A stretch of DNA of 64,000 nucleotides from an uncultured Sarcina sp. (GTDB lineage: Bacteria; Bacillota; Clostridia; Clostridiales; Clostridiaceae), in assembly GCA_963557775.1 (NCBI GenBank), contig CAUWDH010000020.1, positions 2,052 through 66,051 on the forward strand, in the 5' to 3' direction. The position numbers and the translations under genes were made by a program. This document shows positions 7,843 to 58,357 of the stretch, piece by piece. Below the pieces are notes generated by a model, which saw nothing but the letters and a program-made list of their open reading frames with translations, did no database searches and was not told the origin of the DNA. Numbering within the stretch: the first letter of the stretch is position 1; each line of letters starts with the position of its first letter.

Positions 7843-7944
7843 TATAATACTCCTAAAACAAACAATATAATACTCCTAAATAGGCTTGATTAAGCATTAA
7901 AATAGAGTCAAAACTCTATCTAAATTGAGTTTTAGAGTTTTTTG
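7843..7944 (-). repeat. Dispersed intergenic element, copy A (rearranged or partial)
   Basis: TAAGCATTAAAATAGAGTCAAAACTCTATCTAAATTGAG matches the 3' hairpin module of copies B-E. ATAATACTCCTAAA is duplicated at 7843 and 7867. Confidence 0.55.
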
Positions 7945-8050
7945 TAAAATAAATTCACTTTTTATCTTAATTTTTGGAATTGTTTTCTTTTACTTTTGAA
8001 ATTTACTATGAGATTATAAGTATGTAAACATTTTTAAAGGGGGAATTTTA

Positions 8051-10546
8051 GTGAGAAAATTTAAAAGTAAACTAACAAAAACCATATCATTATTAATGTC
8101 TTTTGCTTTTATACTTGCTTTAGTACCTACTAGTTACGCTACGGCTACAGAAAAAACAGATACAAAGGCAGCTTCAGGAGCTCCTGGAAAGCCTCTCTTA
8201 CAACACAACCAATATGGAAATGACAGAGATGGAAATTATACTATAAGCTTCAATATGTGGTATGGTAATAACGGTACAAGCTATAAACTTTATGAAAAAA
8301 TAGGTATAAAGAACGACTTCGTTGTTATTTCAGAAGGAAAGCTTGAAGATGAGACACCCGGACCTCAAAGTGGAACTATTGAAATTACAGGTAAAACTAT
8401 TCCTGGAACCTACTATTATTATTTAGAACTAAATAATTCTTTTGGTACAACTATAAGTGAAACTATATCCGTTAAAGTTGGCTCAACTGAAACTAGTAAA
8501 ATAGTTATTGACAAAATAGATGATGAAAGAACAGAAGTTCAATTTACAGTTCCTCAAGGTACTTCTCAATACAAACTAGTTCATGTTGATGCAAAAGATC
8601 CTAAATTTAAAGTTATTTCAAGTAATACTTCTTCTGTTAAAGCTTCTATTACAGATGGAGATACTTTAAAAATTGAAGCTATAGGGGAAGGAAGAAGTGG
8701 TTTAAAAATAATAGAAGAAACTACTGGCGAAATAAGACAAATAGGTTGTAGAGTTTTAAAAGCTGATGGAAAAGTTCCTGGAATGCCTAATTACCTTTCT
8801 ATCGGTCAAGTTTCAGAAGATACTGATAACGATTTAAATTTTTGGAAAGAAACTTCTCATGATGATACAAACAAAAGAAGTGATATACGATATATCTATA
8901 TAAATGGAGGTCCTATTAGCGGTTGGAGAAAATGGACAACTGAAGATGGTGCTAGAGCTAAAAGATACCTTACTGAAAGTTTAAAATTAGGAATGATTCC
9001 TTTCTTTGTTTACTATAACATTCCAGATGATGCTGAAGACTACGCTGTAGATTTAGCTCATATAAATGATAAAGCTTATATGGAAGCATACTTCCAAGAC
9101 TTAAAATTCCTTTTAGATATTTGCAAAGAATATGCTGGTGATGAAACTGTTGGAATGGTATTTGAACCAGACTTCTTAGGCTATATGATGCAACAATCTG
9201 GTAAACAACCTAATGAAATTTCTGCTGTAGTTGATGCAGCTTATAGCTCAGGTATATTAGAAAAAGGAAAAGATCCTAACTTCGAAAATAATGTTAAAGG
9301 ACTAGTTGAAGCTATTAACTACACAGTTGAAAAATATTATCCTCAAGCTTATAATGGATGGCAATTTAATATTTGGGCATTTAGTGAACCTGGTATACCA
9401 AGTCAAGGCGTTCTTCATAAAACTGAATTTATAGGTATGGAAGAAGGACAAAAATATATAAAAGATGTAGCTAGAAAAACTGCTGAATACTATTTAGCAG
9501 CTGGAATAAATTCCTACGGAACTGAATTTATCTCTATAGATAAATATGGATTAGATGGTGCTTATGAACCTGGTGCTGCTGAAAATCCAAAAGATTCTAA
9601 ATGGCTTTGGAATTCAGATATTTGGAACAACTACTTACTTTACACTAAAACACTTCATGAAACTACAGAAAGACCAGTTATTCTTTGGCAAATTCCTGTA
9701 GGACATTTAAACTCTTCTCAAGAAAACAACCCATATGATGCTAGTGGTAAATTTAAAGATTTAACTAATGCTGTTGGAAACTATGAAGACTCAGCTCCTA
9801 CTTTCTTCTTTGGTGATACCTTTAACGCTGGTGGTGGAAAAAGAACTGAATACTTTAGTACTAATGAATATAATGATCCTAAAGTAAAAGTTCAAGGTGA
9901 CACTATCACTTGGGAAAATCATATGAAAGAAGCTAAAGATGCTGGTATTGTTTCTATATTATTCGGTGCTGGTGTTGGTGCTAGTACAGATGCTGTAGGT
10001 TCTCCTGCTCCCGATAATTATTGGTGGATAACTAAAGCACAAAGATACTTAAAAAAACCATTACCTTTAGATGCTTCTAATATTGTACAACCAGAAAATA
10101 ACTTACCACTTAAGGGTACCTTAACTTCTAATACTACTAATAGCAAAGATGGCAACTATTCATTAACTTTAACTTTACCAAAGAACCATAATGCTACTTC
10201 TTATGAAATATTAGAAAATAATAAAATAGTAAAATCTGCTTCACTCACAAATTCATCTACTTCAATAAAAGAAGATTTTAAAAATAAAACTGATGGAACT
10301 TACGCTTATGAGGTTATCTTAAAAAATAAAAATGGAACATCAAAAACTTCTAAAATAACTATATCAGTTAAGAGGGAAAGTACTGAAAAACCTACTCCTG
10401 AAACTAATTCTTGGAAAGCAGATGTCAACTACAAAGTTGGAGATGTAGTTTCCTACAATAACAAGAAATATAAATGCATTCAGCAACACTTATCCTTAAA
10501 TGGCTGGGAGCCAACTAATGTTCCAGCGCTTTGGTCACAAAACTAA
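8051..10546 (+). CDS. Secreted multidomain carbohydrate-active protein with two ChiN-like modules, an unassigned central catalytic domain and a C-terminal CBM5/12 chitin-binding domain
   Basis: GTG start 8 nt after AAGGGGG. Signal peptide present. NMWYGNNGTSYKLYE and DGNYSLTLTLP...YEILENN resemble chitinase N-terminal modules. The C-terminus YKVGDVVSYNNKKYKCIQQH..GWEP..VPALW is CBM5/12-like. Confidence 0.6.
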   Translation: MRKFKSKLTKTISLLMSFAFILALVPTSYATATEKTDTKAASGAPGKPLLQHNQYGNDRDGNYTISFNMWYGNNGTSYKLYEKIGIKNDFVVISEGKLEDETPGPQSGTIEITGKTIPGTYYYYLELNNSFGTTISETISVKVGSTETSKIVIDKIDDERTEVQFTVPQGTSQYKLVHVDAKDPKFKVISSNTSSVKASITDGDTLKIEAIGEGRSGLKIIEETTGEIRQIGCRVLKADGKVPGMPNYLSIGQVSEDTDNDLNFWKETSHDDTNKRSDIRYIYINGGPISGWRKWTTEDGARAKRYLTESLKLGMIPFFVYYNIPDDAEDYAVDLAHINDKAYMEAYFQDLKFLLDICKEYAGDETVGMVFEPDFLGYMMQQSGKQPNEISAVVDAAYSSGILEKGKDPNFENNVKGLVEAINYTVEKYYPQAYNGWQFNIWAFSEPGIPSQGVLHKTEFIGMEEGQKYIKDVARKTAEYYLAAGINSYGTEFISIDKYGLDGAYEPGAAENPKDSKWLWNSDIWNNYLLYTKTLHETTERPVILWQIPVGHLNSSQENNPYDASGKFKDLTNAVGNYEDSAPTFFFGDTFNAGGGKRTEYFSTNEYNDPKVKVQGDTITWENHMKEAKDAGIVSILFGAGVGASTDAVGSPAPDNYWWITKAQRYLKKPLPLDASNIVQPENNLPLKGTLTSNTTNSKDGNYSLTLTLPKNHNATSYEILENNKIVKSASLTNSSTSIKEDFKNKTDGTYAYEVILKNKNGTSKTSKITISVKRESTEKPTPETNSWKADVNYKVGDVVSYNNKKYKCIQQHLSLNGWEPTNVPALWSQN

Positions 10547-10689: not shown

Positions 10690-12588
10690 TTATGCTAAAA
10701 CACGCTTATCTTCTACTCTTTTACTCACTTTTTCTCTATCTAAGTATTCAAGAATAGGCACTAAATATTTTCTTGAACTATCTATTAATTCTTTTAATTG
10801 TCCTATATTTATTGAACCATTTTCTTTTATATAGTTTATAACTAAATTTTTAACCTTCTCTAAGTTATCTTTATGAAGAGTTATTCCCTCTCCAATATAA
10901 ATTAATTCTTTAGTATCTATTAAATAATTGTATATTTCTTTAGCTTTAAGTTTTTTATCTATTTTTCCTATTATATCTTCTGCTTTTTCTGTTTTAAATC
11001 CACCTTTTAAGTATTTTTCTATAAACATCTCTTTAATTTTATTTTCCTCTTCAGTGAATTTAACTTTTCTTTCAAAAGCCCAAACTAAAGTTTCATTGTA
11101 ATTTATTATTTTTCTCTCTTTTAACAACTCTAATAATTCATTAAATATATTTCCTTTTACTTTGAAGTTTAATATATTCTTTTTAAATTCTTCTTTATTT
11201 ACTCCAAGCTTAAAACTTTCCTTTGAATAATACTCTTTAAAATATTTTTCTATTTTATTAGAAAGCTCTGATAAGTATTTACTGTGTATATAAAAATTAT
11301 CTCCAATTAATATAATACTCTTTTCCTCTTCTAAATTTTTAAAAGCTTTCTCTATTTCTTCTTCATTTGAATTGAAACTATTTTTCACCTCTAAAACTGT
11401 AGTCATCTTATTATCATTATTTAGTATATAATTACTTATTCTATCTTTTAGAGATCCCTCTTCCTTCATCTTCAAATTCATAATATATTTTTCGTTAAAT
11501 CTTTTTGCTTTATTAGCTCTTGCTTCTAAAATAATACCTCCTCCTATGGTATACATAGGTGAATAAGTTCTTATAATTATCTTATCTTTATATTTTGAGC
11601 AAAGTTCCTCTTCAAGCCTTATTTGAACATTTGCTATTTCTCCACTTTTAAGTTCTTCTCTATCTAATAAAATAACTCGTCCCATTATCTCATTAGTATT
11701 GCAATAAATTCTAACTCTATCTCTATTTTTTATGCTTTTTTCTGCATCTTTTAATAAAGTAACTTTACAGTCTATAATAAAACTTGATATTTCCTTTGAT
11801 GGTTCTCCTATAACCATACCTCTTTTTAATTCTTCTTTTTTTAAGTTTGGTAAATTTATAGCAGTTCTTTCTCCAGCATTAGCAAATTCTCTCTTTTCAT
11901 TATGAACTTCTATTCCTCTAACCTTTGAAATTAAACCTCCTGGATTTATTTCCACTTCATCATTAATTGAAATAGTTCCACCAAGAGCTGTTCCTGTAAC
12001 TATAGTTCCAATTCCCTTCACAGAAAATATCCTATCTATGGACATTCTAAATAATGCTTCTTTATTTTTTTCTTCAGCTTCCTTTACTAAAGTTCTCAAT
12101 TCATGGATTAAATTATCTATACCTTCTTTAGATTTACTACTTACTTCTACTATTTTACAATGTTCTAAAAACGAGCCTTTTACCATGTCATTTATATCTT
12201 CTTTTACTATTTCTATAATATCTTCAGAAGCTAAATCTTTTTTAGTTAACACTATTATTCCTGATTTTATATCTAAAAGTTTTAATATATTAAAATGTTC
12301 TATAGTTTGAGGCATTACTCCTTCATCTGCTGCAATAACCATCATTACTATATCAATAGAGGCTGCTCCACCAATCATATTTTTTATAAACTTTTCATGT
12401 CCTGGAACATCTATAATAGCAGCTCTTATATCTTCATCTAAATTAAAATAAGTATAACCATTTTCTATAGTTATACCCCTTAATTTTTCTTCCTTTAATC
12501 TATCTAAATCATTACCTGTAAGTGCTTTAACTAAGGATGTTTTTCCATGATCTATATGCCCTGCTGTCCCTATAACTATATGCTTCAT
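10690..12588 (-). CDS. selB: Selenocysteine-specific translation elongation factor SelB
   Basis: N-terminal GTPase ([25 protein letters not shown]). The long winged-helix C-terminal extension is typical of SelB. The gene follows selA with a 4-nt ATGA overlap. Confidence 0.9.
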
Positions 12589-17469: not shown

Positions 17470-17518
17470 AAAAAAAGAGAGGATGTATCAAATGACAGAT
17501 ACGTCCTCTCTTCTTTTT
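17470..17518. terminator. Bidirectional terminator between the convergent dac and rluD genes
   Basis: AGAGAGGATGTATC (17476-17489) pairs with GATACGTCCTCTCT (17498-17511), flanked by an A-run and a T-run. It shares the GGATGTATCAAA core with the hairpins at 137 and 48064. Confidence 0.75.
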
Positions 17519-17563
17519 AACTATAGAGATAGGCAACTCACCACCTATCTAAAATACTCTATG

Positions 17564-19496: not shown

Positions 19497-19619
19497 TTAT
19501 CTCATAACTAGAGGCTGTAATCCTTTATAAATAGGAAATAAACAGCCTCGCACTTCTAGATAATGACCACTAAATACTGAAATAGAGTTAAAACTCCACC
19601 TCAATTAATCTATGTTTAT
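19497..19619 (-). repeat. Dispersed ~125-nt two-hairpin intergenic element, copy B (full length)
   Basis: On the plus strand it starts TTATCTCATAACTAGAGGCTGT and ends CTATGTTTAT. It has a GAGGCTGT/ACAGCCTC hairpin and a TGAAATAGAGT/ACTCCACCTCA hairpin. The second is fully paired only as minus-strand RNA, through G-U pairs. It ends 27 nt upstream of the LCP start codon. Confidence 0.75.
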
Positions 19620-27313: not shown

Positions 27314-27635
27314 TTATCTGATAGCTAGAGTCTGTAATACTCCTATGTTCTAAAGGAAACTCCACTCGCATTGCTCGCTAAGTAAGTTCCTATAACTAAA
27401 TCAAGCTTTAGATAATCACTTAAGTAGGAAATAAACAGCCTCACGCTTCTAGATAACTACGACTAAGCATTCAGATAGAGTCAAAACTCCACCTGAATTA
27501 AGTCTACGTTTATCTTATAGCTAGCAGTTATAATTCTTCTATTTCCCATAAATAGAATATAAAAGCTTCATGCTTCTAAATGATTATCTCTAATATTCAG
27601 ACCAAAGAAATTAATCCTCTCTTTGTCTAATAATC
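27314..27635 (-). repeat. Dispersed intergenic element, copies C1 and C2 (head-to-tail tandem; C1 carries an internal partial duplication)
   Basis: C1 spans 27314-27513 (TTATCTGATAGCTAGAGTCTGTAATACTCC ... ATTCAGATAGAGTCAAAACTCCACCTGAAT ... CGTTTAT). C2 starts inside the terminal TTTAT (TTATCTTATAGCTAGCAGTTATAAT...) and runs to about 27635. The element ends 30 nt upstream of the radical SAM ATG. Confidence 0.75.
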
Positions 27636-29500: not shown

Positions 29501-29626
29501 TTATCTAATATCTAGATTTTGTACTGCTTCCCTTTCCCTCAAATAGTAAATAATTAGTCTCATAGCTCTAGATAAATTTTATTAAATATTTAAATAAAGT
29601 TAAAACACTACCTAAATTAAGTTTAT
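29501..29626 (-). repeat. Dispersed intergenic element, copy D (full length)
   Basis: TTATCTAATATCTAGATTTTGTAC ... CTCTAGATAAAT ... TAAATAAAGTTAAAACACTACCTAAATTAAGTTTAT. The 3' hairpin needs four G-U pairs and so forms only as minus-strand RNA. It ends 29 nt upstream of the M23 gene ATG. Confidence 0.7.
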
Positions 29627-46624: not shown

Positions 46625-48052
46625 ATGCAAAAAACTAAAATGATTTTTACAATCGGTCCAGTAAGTGACAATGAAAAAGTTTTGAGAAAATTTATTAAAA
46701 TTGGAATGAATGCAGCTCGTTTAAATTTTTCTCATGGATCTCATGAAGAGCATAAGAAAAAAATTGACCTAATAAAAAAAATTAGAAGAGAAGAAAATTC
46801 ACCCACAGCAATTCTTCTAGATATTAAAGGTCCTAAAATAAGGATTCATAATTTTAAAAATGGTCAAGAAGAGCTAAAAGAAGGTGATGAATTCACTTTT
46901 ATTTGTGGTGAAGAAATTTTAGGAGATAATAAAAAATGCTCAATTTCTTATGATATTTTATATCAAGATATCAAAATTGGTTCTTCTATCTTAGTGGATG
47001 ATGGTCTTTTAGAATTTAAAGTAAAAAAAATTATTAATAAATCTATAATTTGTGAAACTATTATTGGTGGAATTATTAAAAATCATAAAGGTGTTAATAT
47101 TCCTAATCTAAAAATAAAACTTCCTGCTATTACTGAAAAGGATATTTTAGATTTAATTTTTGGATGTAAAATGGAAGTAGATTTCATAGCAGCTTCTTTT
47201 ATAAGAAAAGCATCTGATATACTAGAAGTTAGAAATATTCTAGATAATAATGGTGGAAAAGACATAAAAATAATATCAAAAATTGAAAATCAAGAAGGTG
47301 TAGATAACATAGATGAAATTATAGAAGTTTCAGATGGAATAATGGTAGCAAGAGGAGATATGGGAGTAGAAATTCCTATAGAATTTGTACCTGTTATCCA
47401 AAAGTCCATAATTAGAAAATGTAACTTAGCGGGAAAAGTAGTTATAACAGCTACTCAAATGTTAGATTCTATGATTAGAAACTCTAGACCTACTAGAGCT
47501 GAAGCAAGTGATGTATGTAATGCTATTTTTGATGGAACTGATGCCATAATGCTCAGTGGTGAAAGTGCTGCTGGTCACTATCCAGTTGAGGCAGCTAAGA
47601 CAATGAGTAAAATTGCAAAAAAAGCTGAAGAAAACTTAGATTATAGTGAATTATTAAGAAGATTAAAAGATCCAAACCCAAGTACTGATGCTTTTGCTGA
47701 TGCCATAAGTTATTCAGCCTCTAAAACTGCAATAAAATTCCCAACAAAAGCAATAGTTGCAGCTACACAAAGTGGATATACCGCTAAACTTCTTGGAAAG
47801 TACAAGCCTATATGTCCTATAATAGCCATAACTCCACATGAAAAAGTATGTAGGTCCTTGGCTCTAAACTTTGGTGTATTTCCAAAGCTTTGCGAAACTT
47901 ACAAAACCACTGAAAAAATAGTAAAAGAAGCAAAGACAGTAGTAAAAGAACTAGACATTGCAAAAACTGGAGACAATATGATTGTTGTGGCTGGAATGCC
48001 AGTAAGTAATGCTTGTCTTGGAACAAACATGTTCAGAATCGAAAAAATTTAA
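46625..48052 (+). CDS. pyk: Pyruvate kinase
   Basis: KMIFTIGP, NAARLNFSHG, MVARGDMGVEIP and ATQMLDSM motifs, 475 aa. Confidence 0.95.
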   Translation: MQKTKMIFTIGPVSDNEKVLRKFIKIGMNAARLNFSHGSHEEHKKKIDLIKKIRREENSPTAILLDIKGPKIRIHNFKNGQEELKEGDEFTFICGEEILGDNKKCSISYDILYQDIKIGSSILVDDGLLEFKVKKIINKSIICETIIGGIIKNHKGVNIPNLKIKLPAITEKDILDLIFGCKMEVDFIAASFIRKASDILEVRNILDNNGGKDIKIISKIENQEGVDNIDEIIEVSDGIMVARGDMGVEIPIEFVPVIQKSIIRKCNLAGKVVITATQMLDSMIRNSRPTRAEASDVCNAIFDGTDAIMLSGESAAGHYPVEAAKTMSKIAKKAEENLDYSELLRRLKDPNPSTDAFADAISYSASKTAIKFPTKAIVAATQSGYTAKLLGKYKPICPIIAITPHEKVCRSLALNFGVFPKLCETYKTTEKIVKEAKTVVKELDIAKTGDNMIVVAGMPVSNACLGTNMFRIEKI

Positions 48053-48061
48053 ATTTTTAAA

Positions 48062-48373
48062 AAGAGGTGATGTATCAAGTCGCTCTCTAAAATTCAATTA
48101 CTTTTATAAATATATTTCTTTATTTGCCGAGATAGCTATTATAGGTGCAAAATGCTGTGACCATTGAACTAGTAATTAGAAGCTCTTCATTTTTGAACAA
48201 TAGTTGCGAAAAGAAATTTCCACTGTTTGAACGAAGTGAGTTTGGAAATTTTAGCAACTGTTGTAGAAGAAATGTTAGAGCTTCTTTACGTAGGTGAGCG
48301 GTCACAAATGGTGAACCTATATAGCTAGCTAAAAGCAAAAGGGACATATCTACAATTTTGATACATCCCTCTT
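48062..48373. other. ~310-nt nested imperfect hairpin (structured RNA or MITE-like insert) between convergent pyk and the S1 gene
   Basis: Six concentric complementary pairs: 48062-78/48358-73, 48134-46/48315-26, 48154-62/48298-306, 48178-86/48277-85, 48198-207/48254-63 and 48214-22/48243-51, with a 20-nt apical loop. GC is visibly above the intergenic background. Confidence 0.6.
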
Positions 48374-48377
48374 GTTA

Positions 48378-49529
48378 TTAAAACTTAAAATCCTTGAATA
48401 AGTCTCCTAATGAGAAGCCTTCTTCTTCATCGTTATATTCTAAGTATTCAGTTGATTTTTCTGAAGCATCTTTTATGCTTAATGATAATTTATGTTCATC
48501 TGTATCTATTGATAAGATTTTTACTTTTACTTTATCACCTATTTTTAATACTTCTTCTGGTTTTGTTATATTTTCATCTGATATTTCTGATATGTGAACT
48601 AATCCTTCCACACCAGCTTTAATTTCAACAAAAGCACCTACTTTTATAAACTTTGTTACTGTTCCTTCTATTGTATCACCAATTTTGAAATCTTCTTCTA
48701 TTGTGTTCCATGGATCACTACATATATCTTTTAATGATAAAGCTAGTCTATCCTTATTTCTATCTATTTCTTTTATATAAACTTCAACAGTATCTCCTGT
48801 CTTAAGTATATCTTCAACATTTCTTACTCTGCTCCAAGAAAGGTCATTTATGTGAATTAGTCCTTCTAATCCTCCAATATCAACAAAAGCACCAAACTTC
48901 ATTATTTTCTTTACAGTTCCTACTTTCTTTTCGCCAACTTTTATTGAATTCCATATCTTAGCTTTTCCAAGCTTAATTTCTCTTTCTTCAACTACTCTTC
49001 TTGAAATAACAACTTTTCTATTTTCTCTATTAAATTCAATTACTTTTACTTCTAAACTTTCTCCAACTAATGTTTCTAAGTTTTCTACTCTTTTAACTGA
49101 GCATTGTGAGCCAGGCATAAATACTCTAACACCATTTAAAAATCCTACTACTCCACCTTTAACAACTTCATCTACTTTAATAGTTATTGTTTTTTCCTTA
49201 TTAAAGCTCTCTTCTAAATCATCCCACACTTTTATGGCATCAGCTTTTTTCTTTGATAAAAGTACATTACCTTCTCCATCATCTCCACTTAAAACCATCA
49301 CAAAAATATCATCATCAATATTTATACTATTTATATCAAAGTCTTTATTATTTGATAATTCATTTCTTGGAACTATTCCATCTGCAAAATGACCAATATT
49401 AACTATTACTTCATCACTTTTAACAGCTATTACTTTTCCTTTAACTATATCTCCTTTATGAAAATGCTTTAACTCAAAGCTATCCATTAATTGATCCATT
49501 GACATATCTTCACTCATTGTTAGTTCCAC
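48378..49529 (-). CDS. S1 RNA-binding domain protein (four S1 repeats, RpsA-like)
   Basis: Repeated GxxVxGxVxxxxxxGxFVxI S1 signatures (GDIVKGKVIAV..., VVKGGVVGFLNGVRVFMP, GTVKKIMKFGAFVDIGG, GTVTKFIKVGAFVEI). Confidence 0.85.
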   Translation of the reverse strand: MELTMSEDMSMDQLMDSFELKHFHKGDIVKGKVIAVKSDEVIVNIGHFADGIVPRNELSNNKDFDINSINIDDDIFVMVLSGDDGEGNVLLSKKKADAIKVWDDLEESFNKEKTITIKVDEVVKGGVVGFLNGVRVFMPGSQCSVKRVENLETLVGESLEVKVIEFNRENRKVVISRRVVEEREIKLGKAKIWNSIKVGEKKVGTVKKIMKFGAFVDIGGLEGLIHINDLSWSRVRNVEDILKTGDTVEVYIKEIDRNKDRLALSLKDICSDPWNTIEEDFKIGDTIEGTVTKFIKVGAFVEIKAGVEGLVHISEISDENITKPEEVLKIGDKVKVKILSIDTDEHKLSLSIKDASEKSTEYLEYNDEEEGFSLGDLFKDFKF

Positions 49530-58228: not shown

Positions 58229-58357
58229 TTATCTAATAGCTAGATTTCTAATATTCCTACCTTCTACAATTAAGAAATAAATACTATAAAACTTCTAGAT
58301 AAACCTTACTAAACATTCAAATAGGTGAACCCCTACTTGAATTAAATTTACGTTTAT
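58229..58357 (-). repeat. Dispersed intergenic element, copy E (full length)
   Basis: TTATCTAATAGCTAGATTTCTAATATTCC ... CTTCTAGATAAACC ... ATTCAAATAGGTGAACCCCTACTTGAAT ... CGTTTAT. The 3' hairpin stem differs from copy C, but pairing is kept, with a G-U pair in the minus-strand sense. Confidence 0.7.

Follow-up and report, generated by a model that had tools for sequence, protein, structure and literature searches.

The spacer between the convergent genes for pyruvate kinase (pyk) and for a protein with S1 RNA-binding domains (the S1 gene), in a 64,000-nucleotide (nt) stretch of DNA from an uncultured Sarcina sp. (contig CAUWDH010000020.1; hereafter the window), is filled by one long hairpin. 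We consider it moderately probable that this hairpin is a long-resident, non-coding palindromic repeat, here called a capped hairpin, which serves as the bidirectional terminator of pyk and the S1 gene. An earlier reading of the letters of the window (the original prediction) had offered two identities for it, a 6S-like RNA and a non-autonomous inverted-repeat element inserted into a terminator; the first is rejected here, and the second turned out to be partly right.

The stop codons of pyk and the S1 gene lie 325 nt apart, and the hairpin (48062-48373) takes up the whole of this convergent spacer. Its parts and its two neighbours are as follows.

46625-48052, plus strand: pyruvate kinase gene (pyk), from the list of open reading frames (ORFs); Pfam PK 4.5e-131, PK_C 3.2e-30
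48050-48052, plus strand: pyk stop codon TAA, 9 nt ahead of the hairpin
48059-48063, plus strand: A-run at the 5' foot of the hairpin, read from the sequence and paired with the T-rich 3' foot in the minimum free energy (MFE) fold
48062-48078, plus strand: 5' arm of the outer stem, AAGAGGTGATGTATCAA (sequence, MFE fold)
48080-48111, plus strand: AT-rich 5'-side segment, about 32 nt long, left unpaired in the rod (MFE fold)
48112-48217, plus strand: 5' arm of the core rod, with the stems AGCTATTATAGGT, TGTGACC, AGAAGCTCT and CAATAGTTGC and the internal loop 48163-48171 (sequence, MFE fold)
48218-48247, plus strand: apical module TTCCA-CTGTTTGAACGAAGTGAGTT-TGGAA (30 nt), with the 20-nt loop at 48223-48242 (sequence, fold, tip matches)
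48248-48349, plus strand: 3' arm of the core rod, with the internal loop 48289-48298 (sequence, MFE fold)
48358-48373, plus strand: 3' arm of the outer stem, TTGATACATCCCTCTT (sequence, MFE fold)
48372-48379, plus strand: T-rich tail TTGTTATT after the hairpin (T at 6 of 8 positions), overlapping the S1 stop codon (sequence; not called by the terminator scan)
48378-49529, minus strand: gene for the protein with four S1 RNA-binding domains (Pfam S1 1.9e-54, four stretches), its stop codon 5 nt from the hairpin

The MFE fold of 48050-48385 was a single long imperfect rod on either strand. It reached -101.6 kcal/mol on the plus strand as against -64.4 +/- 4.4 in 100 dinucleotide shuffles (z -8.45), and -96.8 kcal/mol on the minus strand (z -8.52 against shuffles of the same kind), and on neither strand did any shuffle match the energy of the real fold; in the family-wide stability test the hairpin scored z = -9.1. 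All six stems named in the original prediction, its 20-nt apical loop (48223-48242) and its 9x10 internal loop were found where it had put them, the outer stem (48062-48078 with 48358-48373) counting 16 pairs, and the GC content within the hairpin, 0.31-0.35 as against 0.21-0.25 in nearby spacers, was indeed above the intergenic background. Its picture of one long imperfect rod holds for the fold itself but not for the base, which is asymmetric, with some 32 nt (48080-48111) left unpaired on the 5' side. A G-U pair in the CAATAGTTGC/GCAACTGTTG stem had been taken for the sole pair that differs between the strands; this was mistaken, as the MFE folds hold seven G-U pairs on the plus and eight on the minus strand. 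The weak preference for the plus strand that had been drawn from it was still borne out, the plus strand being about 5 kcal/mol more stable, and is backed by the strand asymmetry of the whole family (below). The 75-aa minus-strand ORF can likewise be set aside as spurious, since neither it nor any other ORF inside the hairpin matched Pfam and it had no relative among 5.8 billion proteins.

What connects this hairpin with others is its tip. A 21-nt loop query against metagenomes returned seven JGI loci (L091-L097) of 38-45% GC, none of them at pyk, which by BLAST share only 26-30 nt with the window, and these shared letters always cap a long hairpin whose stem sequence is unrelated. Identity over all 30 nt of the tip (48218-48247) was seen in L092 and L094-L097, while the loop (48223-48242) alone is common to L091, L093, Fusobacterium and Sulfurovum. 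The window loop is identical to the loops of L091-L097, L098 and L099, and hairpins capped by this loop occur in three named records, those of Fusobacterium vincentii (between two unannotated ORFs that we judged by eye to be carA and carB), F. animalis and Sulfurovum mangrovi (between annotated thiazole synthase and magnesium transporter genes); the genes adjoining the copies are unrelated to one another. The loop follows the consensus 5'-YTGTYTGARCGA(N)AGYGAGTT-3', and the closing stem below it co-varies (CCA/TGG, AGA/TCT, GGC/GCC, TAA/TTA, CCCA/TGGG). We define a capped hairpin as the loop YTGTYYGAR...AGYRAGTT at the apex of a significantly stable hairpin of at least 130 nt, a description that the window hairpin fits. 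The hairpins that bear the tip are all significantly stable (z -3 to -13); they are imperfect hairpins of 130-310 nt whose stems differ by lineage and whose tip is near-invariant.

No Rfam family, 6S and other long hairpin families included, matched the window, the hairpin itself at E<=10, 17 related loci, or the Fusobacterium and metagenome hairpins at E<=10, this relaxed threshold giving only generic hairpin noise such as miRNA precursors. The loop and its variants were not found in the searchable literature, and searches for hairpin repeats of Fusobacterium or Clostridium turned up only general surveys. As far as sequence comparison can tell, the capped hairpins are thus a family present in at least three bacterial phyla and absent from Rfam and the searchable literature. 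Nothing relevant was obtained when the whole spacer was compared by blastn with plasmid and phage collections, nor any match in E. coli genomes, or in plasmids for the 215-nt variant described below; in PLSDB (72,556 records) the tip query hit only three records, of 0.2-2.1 Mb, and no small plasmid. A site complementary to the loop was not found in the 64-kb window. Matches in Vibrio filamentous phages were discarded, being an 18-mer that does not sit at the tip of a long hairpin; they may be due to chance, a judgement made without a computed expectation. We also came across a 2.2-kb circular contig of a circular Rep-encoding single-stranded (CRESS) DNA virus (L100; IMG/VR UViG_3300009423_000005), with Rep and capsid genes and an origin TAGTATTAC at about 1104, which carries three tandem copies of the tip motif, of both variants, at 67-196 in its 3' intergenic region and not within a long hairpin. 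Since these copies are away from the origin, they were rejected as Rep iterons.

The copies outside Clostridium include two that have reached high numbers. One is a Fusobacterium element of about 180 nt, which was counted at 40 or more sites of a 2.1-Mb record and at 13 of another of 218 kb. It has the inverted repeats TAATGTAGATAAAAAATAAGT / ACTATTTTTTACTACATTA as its ends. Two variants of its tip occur: the conserved flanks TGTTTGAA and AGTTTG enclose CGAA in one and a small inserted hairpin in the other. Three of the four Fusobacterium copies that were read lie 22-31 nt from stop codons, two of these filling convergent spacers. The other is a palindromic repeat of 215 nt in an uncultured bacterium of 39% GC. 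The variant loop TGTCTGAGCGACAGCGAGT forms its apex, its inverted ends GATGCCTGCCTATAAAATA are perfect, its inner foot has an A-run and a T-run, and its tip reads GGATTCC-TCTGTCTGAGCGACAGCGAGTT-TGGAATCC; it begins 2-4 nt past stop codons and follows nearly every operon across about 50 kb (L094-L097, JGI contigs Ga0334900/Ga0334901/Ga0334894; for example L095 3650-3870), in the same orientation in 11 of 11 copies. Direct repeats that would mark a target-site duplication were absent around the window copy, four Fusobacterium copies and ten 215-nt copies, and no transposase, HUH or other candidate gene was seen in the copy flanks examined, no genome-wide search having been made. [quoted passage not shown]

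Furthermore, the two strands of these hairpins are not equivalent. In 15 of 16 hairpins the fold of the strand that carries the motif (the motif-sense strand) is more stable than that of the complement, by 4 to 25 kcal/mol; counted by family, this is so in eight of nine. When the tip was swapped for GAAA the motif-sense strand was still the better one in 12 of 14, so the asymmetry resides in the stems. In all 11 copies the 215-nt variant runs antisense to the adjoining genes, and yet the motif strand is the one that folds better in eight of ten, which indicates that the bias goes with the motif whichever way the genes point; a mutational skew as the cause of the asymmetry was rejected on the same ground. 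In the window the motif-sense strand is the plus strand, that is, the sense strand of pyk. According to these predicted folds, the strand bias argues for a single folded strand as the active form.

Relatives were compared at 80 pyk-centred Clostridium loci, which together with the window make up 1.6 Mb. Within the species all eight contigs that span the spacer (with identical pyruvate kinase) carry the hairpin at 99.7-100% identity. In the closest named genome, Clostridium massiliamazoniense (L011; pyk 96% identical in amino acids), the spacer is 95.7% identical over its full 325 nt, as compared with about 91% at the four-fold sites of pyk and the S1 gene and 77-96% in other spacers shared by the two, which are often alignable only in part. 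The 13 substitutions comprise seven at unpaired positions, three that turn G-U into Watson-Crick pairs and three that break a pair, with no two-sided compensation, and six of the 13 fall within the unpaired segment 48080-48111. This degree of conservation suggests constraint on the hairpin. The convergent order of pyk and the S1 gene is found in about 70 of the 80 loci, most of them with spacers of about 50-130 nt, and the 325-nt spacer is confined to the window species and C. massiliamazoniense. The spacers that were read among related loci hold a plain short terminator, including those of C. perfringens and of the next relative, a Sarcina-named metagenome-assembled genome (MAG; L012). The hairpin is absent from the pyk-S1 spacer of L012, L014 and L016, and L013 and L015 keep a single arm of the element of another locus, L030 (below). 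As most relatives have the short spacer, the interior of the hairpin is extra, an insertion, relative to them.

Two observations on these same loci may be added. The contigs L009 and L010 (Logan assemblies) end at the equivalents of window positions 48179 and 48169, inside the 5' arm and within 10 nt of each other; another genomic copy, loss of coverage or a graph problem at the hairpin could lie behind these breaks. In L012 the pyk-S1 spacer (11500-11580) holds short AAATTCC-type tandem repeats instead of the hairpin, and units of the same type form a 360-nt complex inverted repeat 3 kb upstream of it (8018-8377).

Among the window and the 80 loci, regular-expression searches and a tip profile identified hairpins with this tip in the window, L011, L030, L055, L032 and L033 and nowhere else. 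The tip of L030 is TTGTTCGAAGCGTAGCAAGTT, on the other strand, and that of L055 is TGTCTGAGGGCAGCGAGT; by its arms (70% over 147 nt) the hairpin of L045 can be recognised as a homologue of the L030 one. The tip profile matched nothing but hairpin tips in the 1.6 Mb, and a looser degenerate pattern gave nine matches as against none in a reversed-sequence control. Five of the clostridial copies occupy the pyk-S1 spacer, and those of L032 and L033, 77-79% identical to that of L055 and inverted relative to each other, lie beyond the opposite end of the S1 gene, in a divergent spacer. All seven clostridial copies thus flank the S1 gene, though each locus has many other spacers, a count that rests on pyk-centred loci; within such a sample this is suggestive of a link with the S1 gene. 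This placement is better matched by a single old resident element that has flipped, moved locally and often been lost than by repeated random insertion. L032 13069-13275 and L033 5590-5800 are the same element inverted in place between two close Clostridium genomes, which is consistent with a flip-flop between the arms of a long inverted repeat.

The pairing itself seems to have been kept across larger distances. L030 and L045 belong to different clades (pyk 69% identical in amino acids, 54.5% at four-fold sites) and have their hairpins in the same spacer. All 56 pairs of their consensus hairpin are standard in both, and 18 of them have changed on both sides as against 8.9 +/- 2.1 in shuffles (0 of 500 reached this count), a signal which is abolished by sliding the partners; the count comes from two sequences only, with the structure predicted on the same alignment. 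The trio L055, L032 and L033 showed six two-sided changes, but also about 20 broken cells. In a global alignment the window and L030 hairpins scored barely above shuffles (z 3.8, reverse orientation), so their homology rests on the shared foot and tip and not on the arms. A second set of hairpin repeats, which we call family B (200-240 nt, tip GCTTGTCC-small hairpin-GGAGCAAGC), was observed in C. uliginosum, C. chromiireducens and MAGs, without an Rfam match (L083 8091-8314 and 11533-11754; L090 11502-11705; L067 14994-15200 and 15238-15474; L059 10714-11256; and the pyk-S1 spacer of L086). Some of its copies also occupy the pyk-S1 spacer; it is kept apart from the capped hairpins because its tip fits the motif only loosely.

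The foot of the window hairpin has the anatomy of a terminator. The A-run at 48059-48063 is, on the minus strand, a U-run CCUCUUUUU that follows the stem when read from the S1 gene, and on the plus strand the stem is followed by a weaker CCCUCUUGUUAUU. As the basal stem with a U-run on each strand is the sole terminator-like feature in the spacer, we propose the hairpin as the bidirectional terminator, or 3'-end hairpin, of both genes. Near-copies of the outer stem close short terminator-like hairpins elsewhere, twice in the window and also in the clostridial loci L036, L038 (twice) and L085. The two in the window, neither assigned to a strand, are as follows.

17470-17520: short bidirectional terminator-like hairpin AAAAGAGAGGATGTATC-AAATGAC-GATACGTCCTCTCTTCTTTTT, its stem matching the outer stem at 15 of 17 positions
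128-172: second short hairpin with the same stem core (AAGGATGTATCAAAATTAATTAATACATCCCT)

The hairpin at 17470-17520 could be a collapsed or 'empty' form of the long one, and the short outer-stem hairpins in general could be targets or collapsed remnants of long hairpins. The L030 pyk-S1 spacer has a hairpin of 254 nt, different in its interior, that is closed by this same stem motif, AAAAGGGGATGTATCAAAATA ... TATTTTGATACATGCCTTTT. The short hairpins of L038 (13144-13177, 16743-16776), L085 (19843-19868) and L036 (1197-1225) have the stem core GGNTGTATCAAAAT / ATTTTGATACANCC in common, which is also the core of the outer stem of the window and L030 long hairpins.

The mechanism that we propose is as follows. 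The hairpin sits where most related genomes have a spacer of about 50-130 nt, those that were read holding a plain short terminator, and its foot keeps the terminator anatomy on each strand. Because the promoter scan found no sigma-70-like promoter within or beside it and it abuts both stop codons, its only transcripts would be the 3' ends of the pyk mRNA (the motif-sense strand) or of the S1 mRNA (the antisense strand). The rod would zip up from the tip during transcription, as the 3' arm leaves the polymerase, and closure of the basal stem next to the U-run would halt the polymerase in both directions; the hairpin might then shield the 3' ends of both mRNAs, which presumably come from two highly expressed genes. 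Capped hairpins behave like MITEs in some genomes, namely Fusobacterium and the uncultured bacterium, and are low-copy residents in Clostridium, tied to the flanks of the S1 gene, where their pairing has lasted through long evolutionary separation. As for the conserved tip, it most likely serves for recognition on one folded strand, the motif-sense one, and probably so in the form of RNA or single-stranded DNA (ssDNA).

Several observations weigh against a resident repeat that acts as a terminator. As for the repeat, neither a target-site duplication nor a cognate transposase was seen, and the conserved part is the centre and not the ends, the reverse of what a classic MITE shows. A repeat finder, sensitive blastn, regular expressions and an nhmmer tip profile turned up only the one full copy in the 64-kb window, and the 21 kb of L011 likewise held no second, which leaves repeat status in this genome unproven; the extra copies that a mobile element would lead one to expect came down to the two short hairpins that share only the outer stem. 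Random insertion does not predict that all seven clostridial copies flank the S1 gene, and arm-to-arm conversion within a palindrome could mimic the selection for pairing seen between L030 and L045. As for the terminator, a hairpin of about 300 nt is far beyond the usual anatomy of intrinsic terminators, and a scan for these (loops of 3-8 nt allowed) called none in 47000-49500; the plus-strand U-run TTGTTATT is weak, and the relative in L032 and L033 stands in a divergent promoter spacer upstream of S1, which is no terminator position.

A wider proposal, which we put forward tentatively, is that the capped hairpins are an undescribed cross-phylum class of structured single strands, RNA or ssDNA, in which an invariant 20-nt loop is read by a dedicated factor, the fold is strand-specific and the stem is free to vary provided that it stays paired. 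One Clostridium copy would then have stood beside S1 since before the split of cluster I, pointing to a locus-specific function and not to selfish spread.

We think it unlikely, on the present evidence, that the hairpin is first of all a functional structured RNA, either acting in cis in the 3' untranslated region (UTR) of pyk or S1 or processed to a stable rod, with its loop bound by a conserved protein or RNA, kept at S1 by selection and copied around only secondarily. Such an RNA would account for a loop that hardly changes over three phyla while its closing stem co-varies, for a motif-sense strand that is the better one with and without its own tip (15 of 16 and 12 of 14), for the placement of seven out of seven clostridial copies beside the gene of an S1-domain RNA-binding protein, for 18 two-sided pair changes without a broken pair between L030 and L045, and for a hairpin more conserved than neighbouring spacers. 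It agrees poorly, however, with the want of a promoter-like site and of an Rfam family, with an orientation relative to the S1 gene that is opposite in L032 and L033, and again in the window and L030, with loss or decay of the element in many relatives, and with the absence of a loop-complementary target in the window. Moreover, the better-folding strand of the 215-nt variant, being antisense to the genes in all 11 copies, is not in the mRNA.

Still less probable, in our estimate, is a role as folded ssDNA, either as a transposition intermediate for an HUH-type or other hairpin enzyme or as a priming signal like the single-strand origin of a plasmid, the tip being the site of the enzyme. A strand asymmetry that tracks the motif and not the gene direction is what a strand-specific DNA process would produce and is hard to obtain by way of mRNA, and the high-copy relatives without target duplication point the same way. 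The ACGAAGT of the loop is, we presume, a variant of the stable d(GCGAAGC) DNA mini-hairpin. Plasmid origins of the ssoA type are likewise long imperfect hairpins with blocks in the lower stem and the loop, and TTATTTGCCGAGA of the window resembles the lower-stem block of these origins, recombination site B (RSB; TTATGCCGAGAAAATTT). Against this, their loop block TAGCGT (conserved sequence 6, CS-6) is missing from the loop, the tip matches no small plasmid among the 72,556 records but only the three of 0.2-2.1 Mb, the copy flanks examined showed no HUH or other candidate gene, and the motif copies of the CRESS virus contig are away from its replication origin.

A lineage-specific terminator, overgrown by local inverted duplication and with only coincidental tip matches elsewhere, would suit the single copy in the window, the exact terminator position and the foot resembling that of an ordinary terminator. 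It is nonetheless very improbable, as it is contradicted already by the cross-phylum matches, 30 of 30 tip nucleotides in an unrelated organism of 39% GC and 20-22 nt in Fusobacterium and Sulfurovum, which are not due to chance, and by a tip profile that finds only hairpin tips in the Clostridium DNA, the reversed control giving none as against nine. A 6S or 6S-like RNA that binds RNA polymerase has a rod with an internal loop in its favour and can otherwise be dismissed, there being no RF00013 match at E<=10, no promoter-like site, the wrong size and loop, relatives that are multi-copy, and no such hairpin in close relatives.

Palindromic repeats at gene ends are known; normally each is confined to a species and recognised by its ends. 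In the capped hairpins a 20-base tip is identical in Clostridium, Fusobacterium and Sulfurovum while its surroundings differ, and the folding preference follows the strand of the tip; an invariant tip across phyla combined with a strand-specific fold is not explained by present knowledge. Conservation of the tip and preference for one strand, taken as comparative evidence, point to an undescribed recognition event on a folded single strand, for which the loop sequence offers a concrete probe to fish out the recognising factor. Capped hairpins would also explain part of the shaping of terminators and 3' UTRs in medically relevant anaerobes, Fusobacterium having dozens of them beside stop codons, and for genome annotation they make up a class of long hairpins that should not be taken for 6S-like RNAs.

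The window holds one further repeat, an intergenic one of about 100 nt present in five copies within the 64 kb at 62-84% identity, with the consensus ...AAATAGGAAATAAACAGNCTCANACTTCTAGATAA...AAATAGAGTTAAAACTCTACCTNAATTAAGTTTA.... One copy searched against Rfam at E<=1 gave no match, and the repeat may be a shared leader, an operator or a small repeat. Its copies are the following.

7848-7928: intergenic repeat of about 100 nt
19528-19608: intergenic repeat of about 100 nt
27421-27501: intergenic repeat of about 100 nt
29540-29620: intergenic repeat of about 100 nt
58265-58324: intergenic repeat of about 100 nt

Among the systems with which the window hairpin may be compared, 6S RNA is an RNA of about 185 nt in which a large central bubble lies between a closing stem and a terminal loop. 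The two have a rod with an internal loop in common, but every 6S feature that could be tested failed in the window hairpin, which is a 312-nt rod, some 100 nt longer, with a largest internal loop of 9x10, no promoter-like site, no match to RF00013, whether the 64-kb window was searched at the gathering score or 47900-48500 at E<=10, and no counterpart in the relatives L012, L014 and L016; on these grounds the 6S-like identity was abandoned. Repetitive extragenic palindromic (REP) sequences and REPINs, mobilised by RAYT (TnpA-REP), are palindromic gene-end repeats as well, proposed to be terminators or mRNA stabilisers and handled as folded single strands. A REP is a GC-rich hairpin of 20-40 nt with a GTAG/GTGG tag 0-2 nt 5' of the stem (PMC6006769). 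The window hairpin is also an extragenic palindrome at gene ends, but neither of its feet has the tag and it exceeds a REP about tenfold in length, and membership was rejected for want of the tag and for the 312-nt size. The ssoA origins of plasmids are long imperfect hairpins with the conserved RSB block in the lower stem and CS-6 in the terminal loop (PMC4598088, PMC8860593). Like them the capped hairpins are strand-specific, and the lower 5' arm in the window has its partial RSB look-alike at about 48117-48131; the origins, however, are borne by rolling-circle plasmids and carry CS-6, whereas the window hairpin is chromosomal and has no TAGCGT in its loop. Membership in this class was rejected for want of CS-6, the merely partial RSB, the chromosomal context and a tip found in no small PLSDB plasmid.

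Closer are the hairpin MITEs, such as EFAR of enterococci, RUP of S. pneumoniae, Correia/NEMIS of Neisseria, ERIC and Bcr1, which are non-coding, 70-300 bp long and bounded by inverted-repeat ends of 15-30 bp, and which lie beside coding sequences and are co-transcribed with them as robust stem-loops that stabilise or destabilise the mRNA (PMC3733652). The Fusobacterium element and the 39%-GC relatives fit this description, and the presence of capped hairpins varies between relatives; these differ in that they conserve a 20-nt centre and were found without target duplication or transposase. The window copy is small (312 nt, at the upper size limit) and non-coding, has terminal inverted repeats of 16 pairs and is present or absent at orthologous sites, but the Clostridium hairpins are low-copy and locus-bound, one full copy and two short outer-stem hairpins being all that the 64 kb holds while the relatives that share only the tip are multi-copy elsewhere, and a target-site duplication is lacking in the window, Fusobacterium and 215-nt copies alike. 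What stands of the proposed non-autonomous element in a terminator is therefore the insertion relative to other Clostridium loci, the recurring outer stem and a tip that ties it to MITE-like repeats; what does not stand is a mobile element recognisable by a second full copy, target duplication, transposase or conserved ends, as it is the centre that is conserved. Finally, the bidirectional intrinsic terminators of convergent genes occupy the same position as the window hairpin. They close on a loop of 3-8 nt where the hairpin instead has about 280 nt more of hairpin, but its foot is likewise built of an A-run, a stem and a T-run, at the very place where its relatives have a plain terminator.

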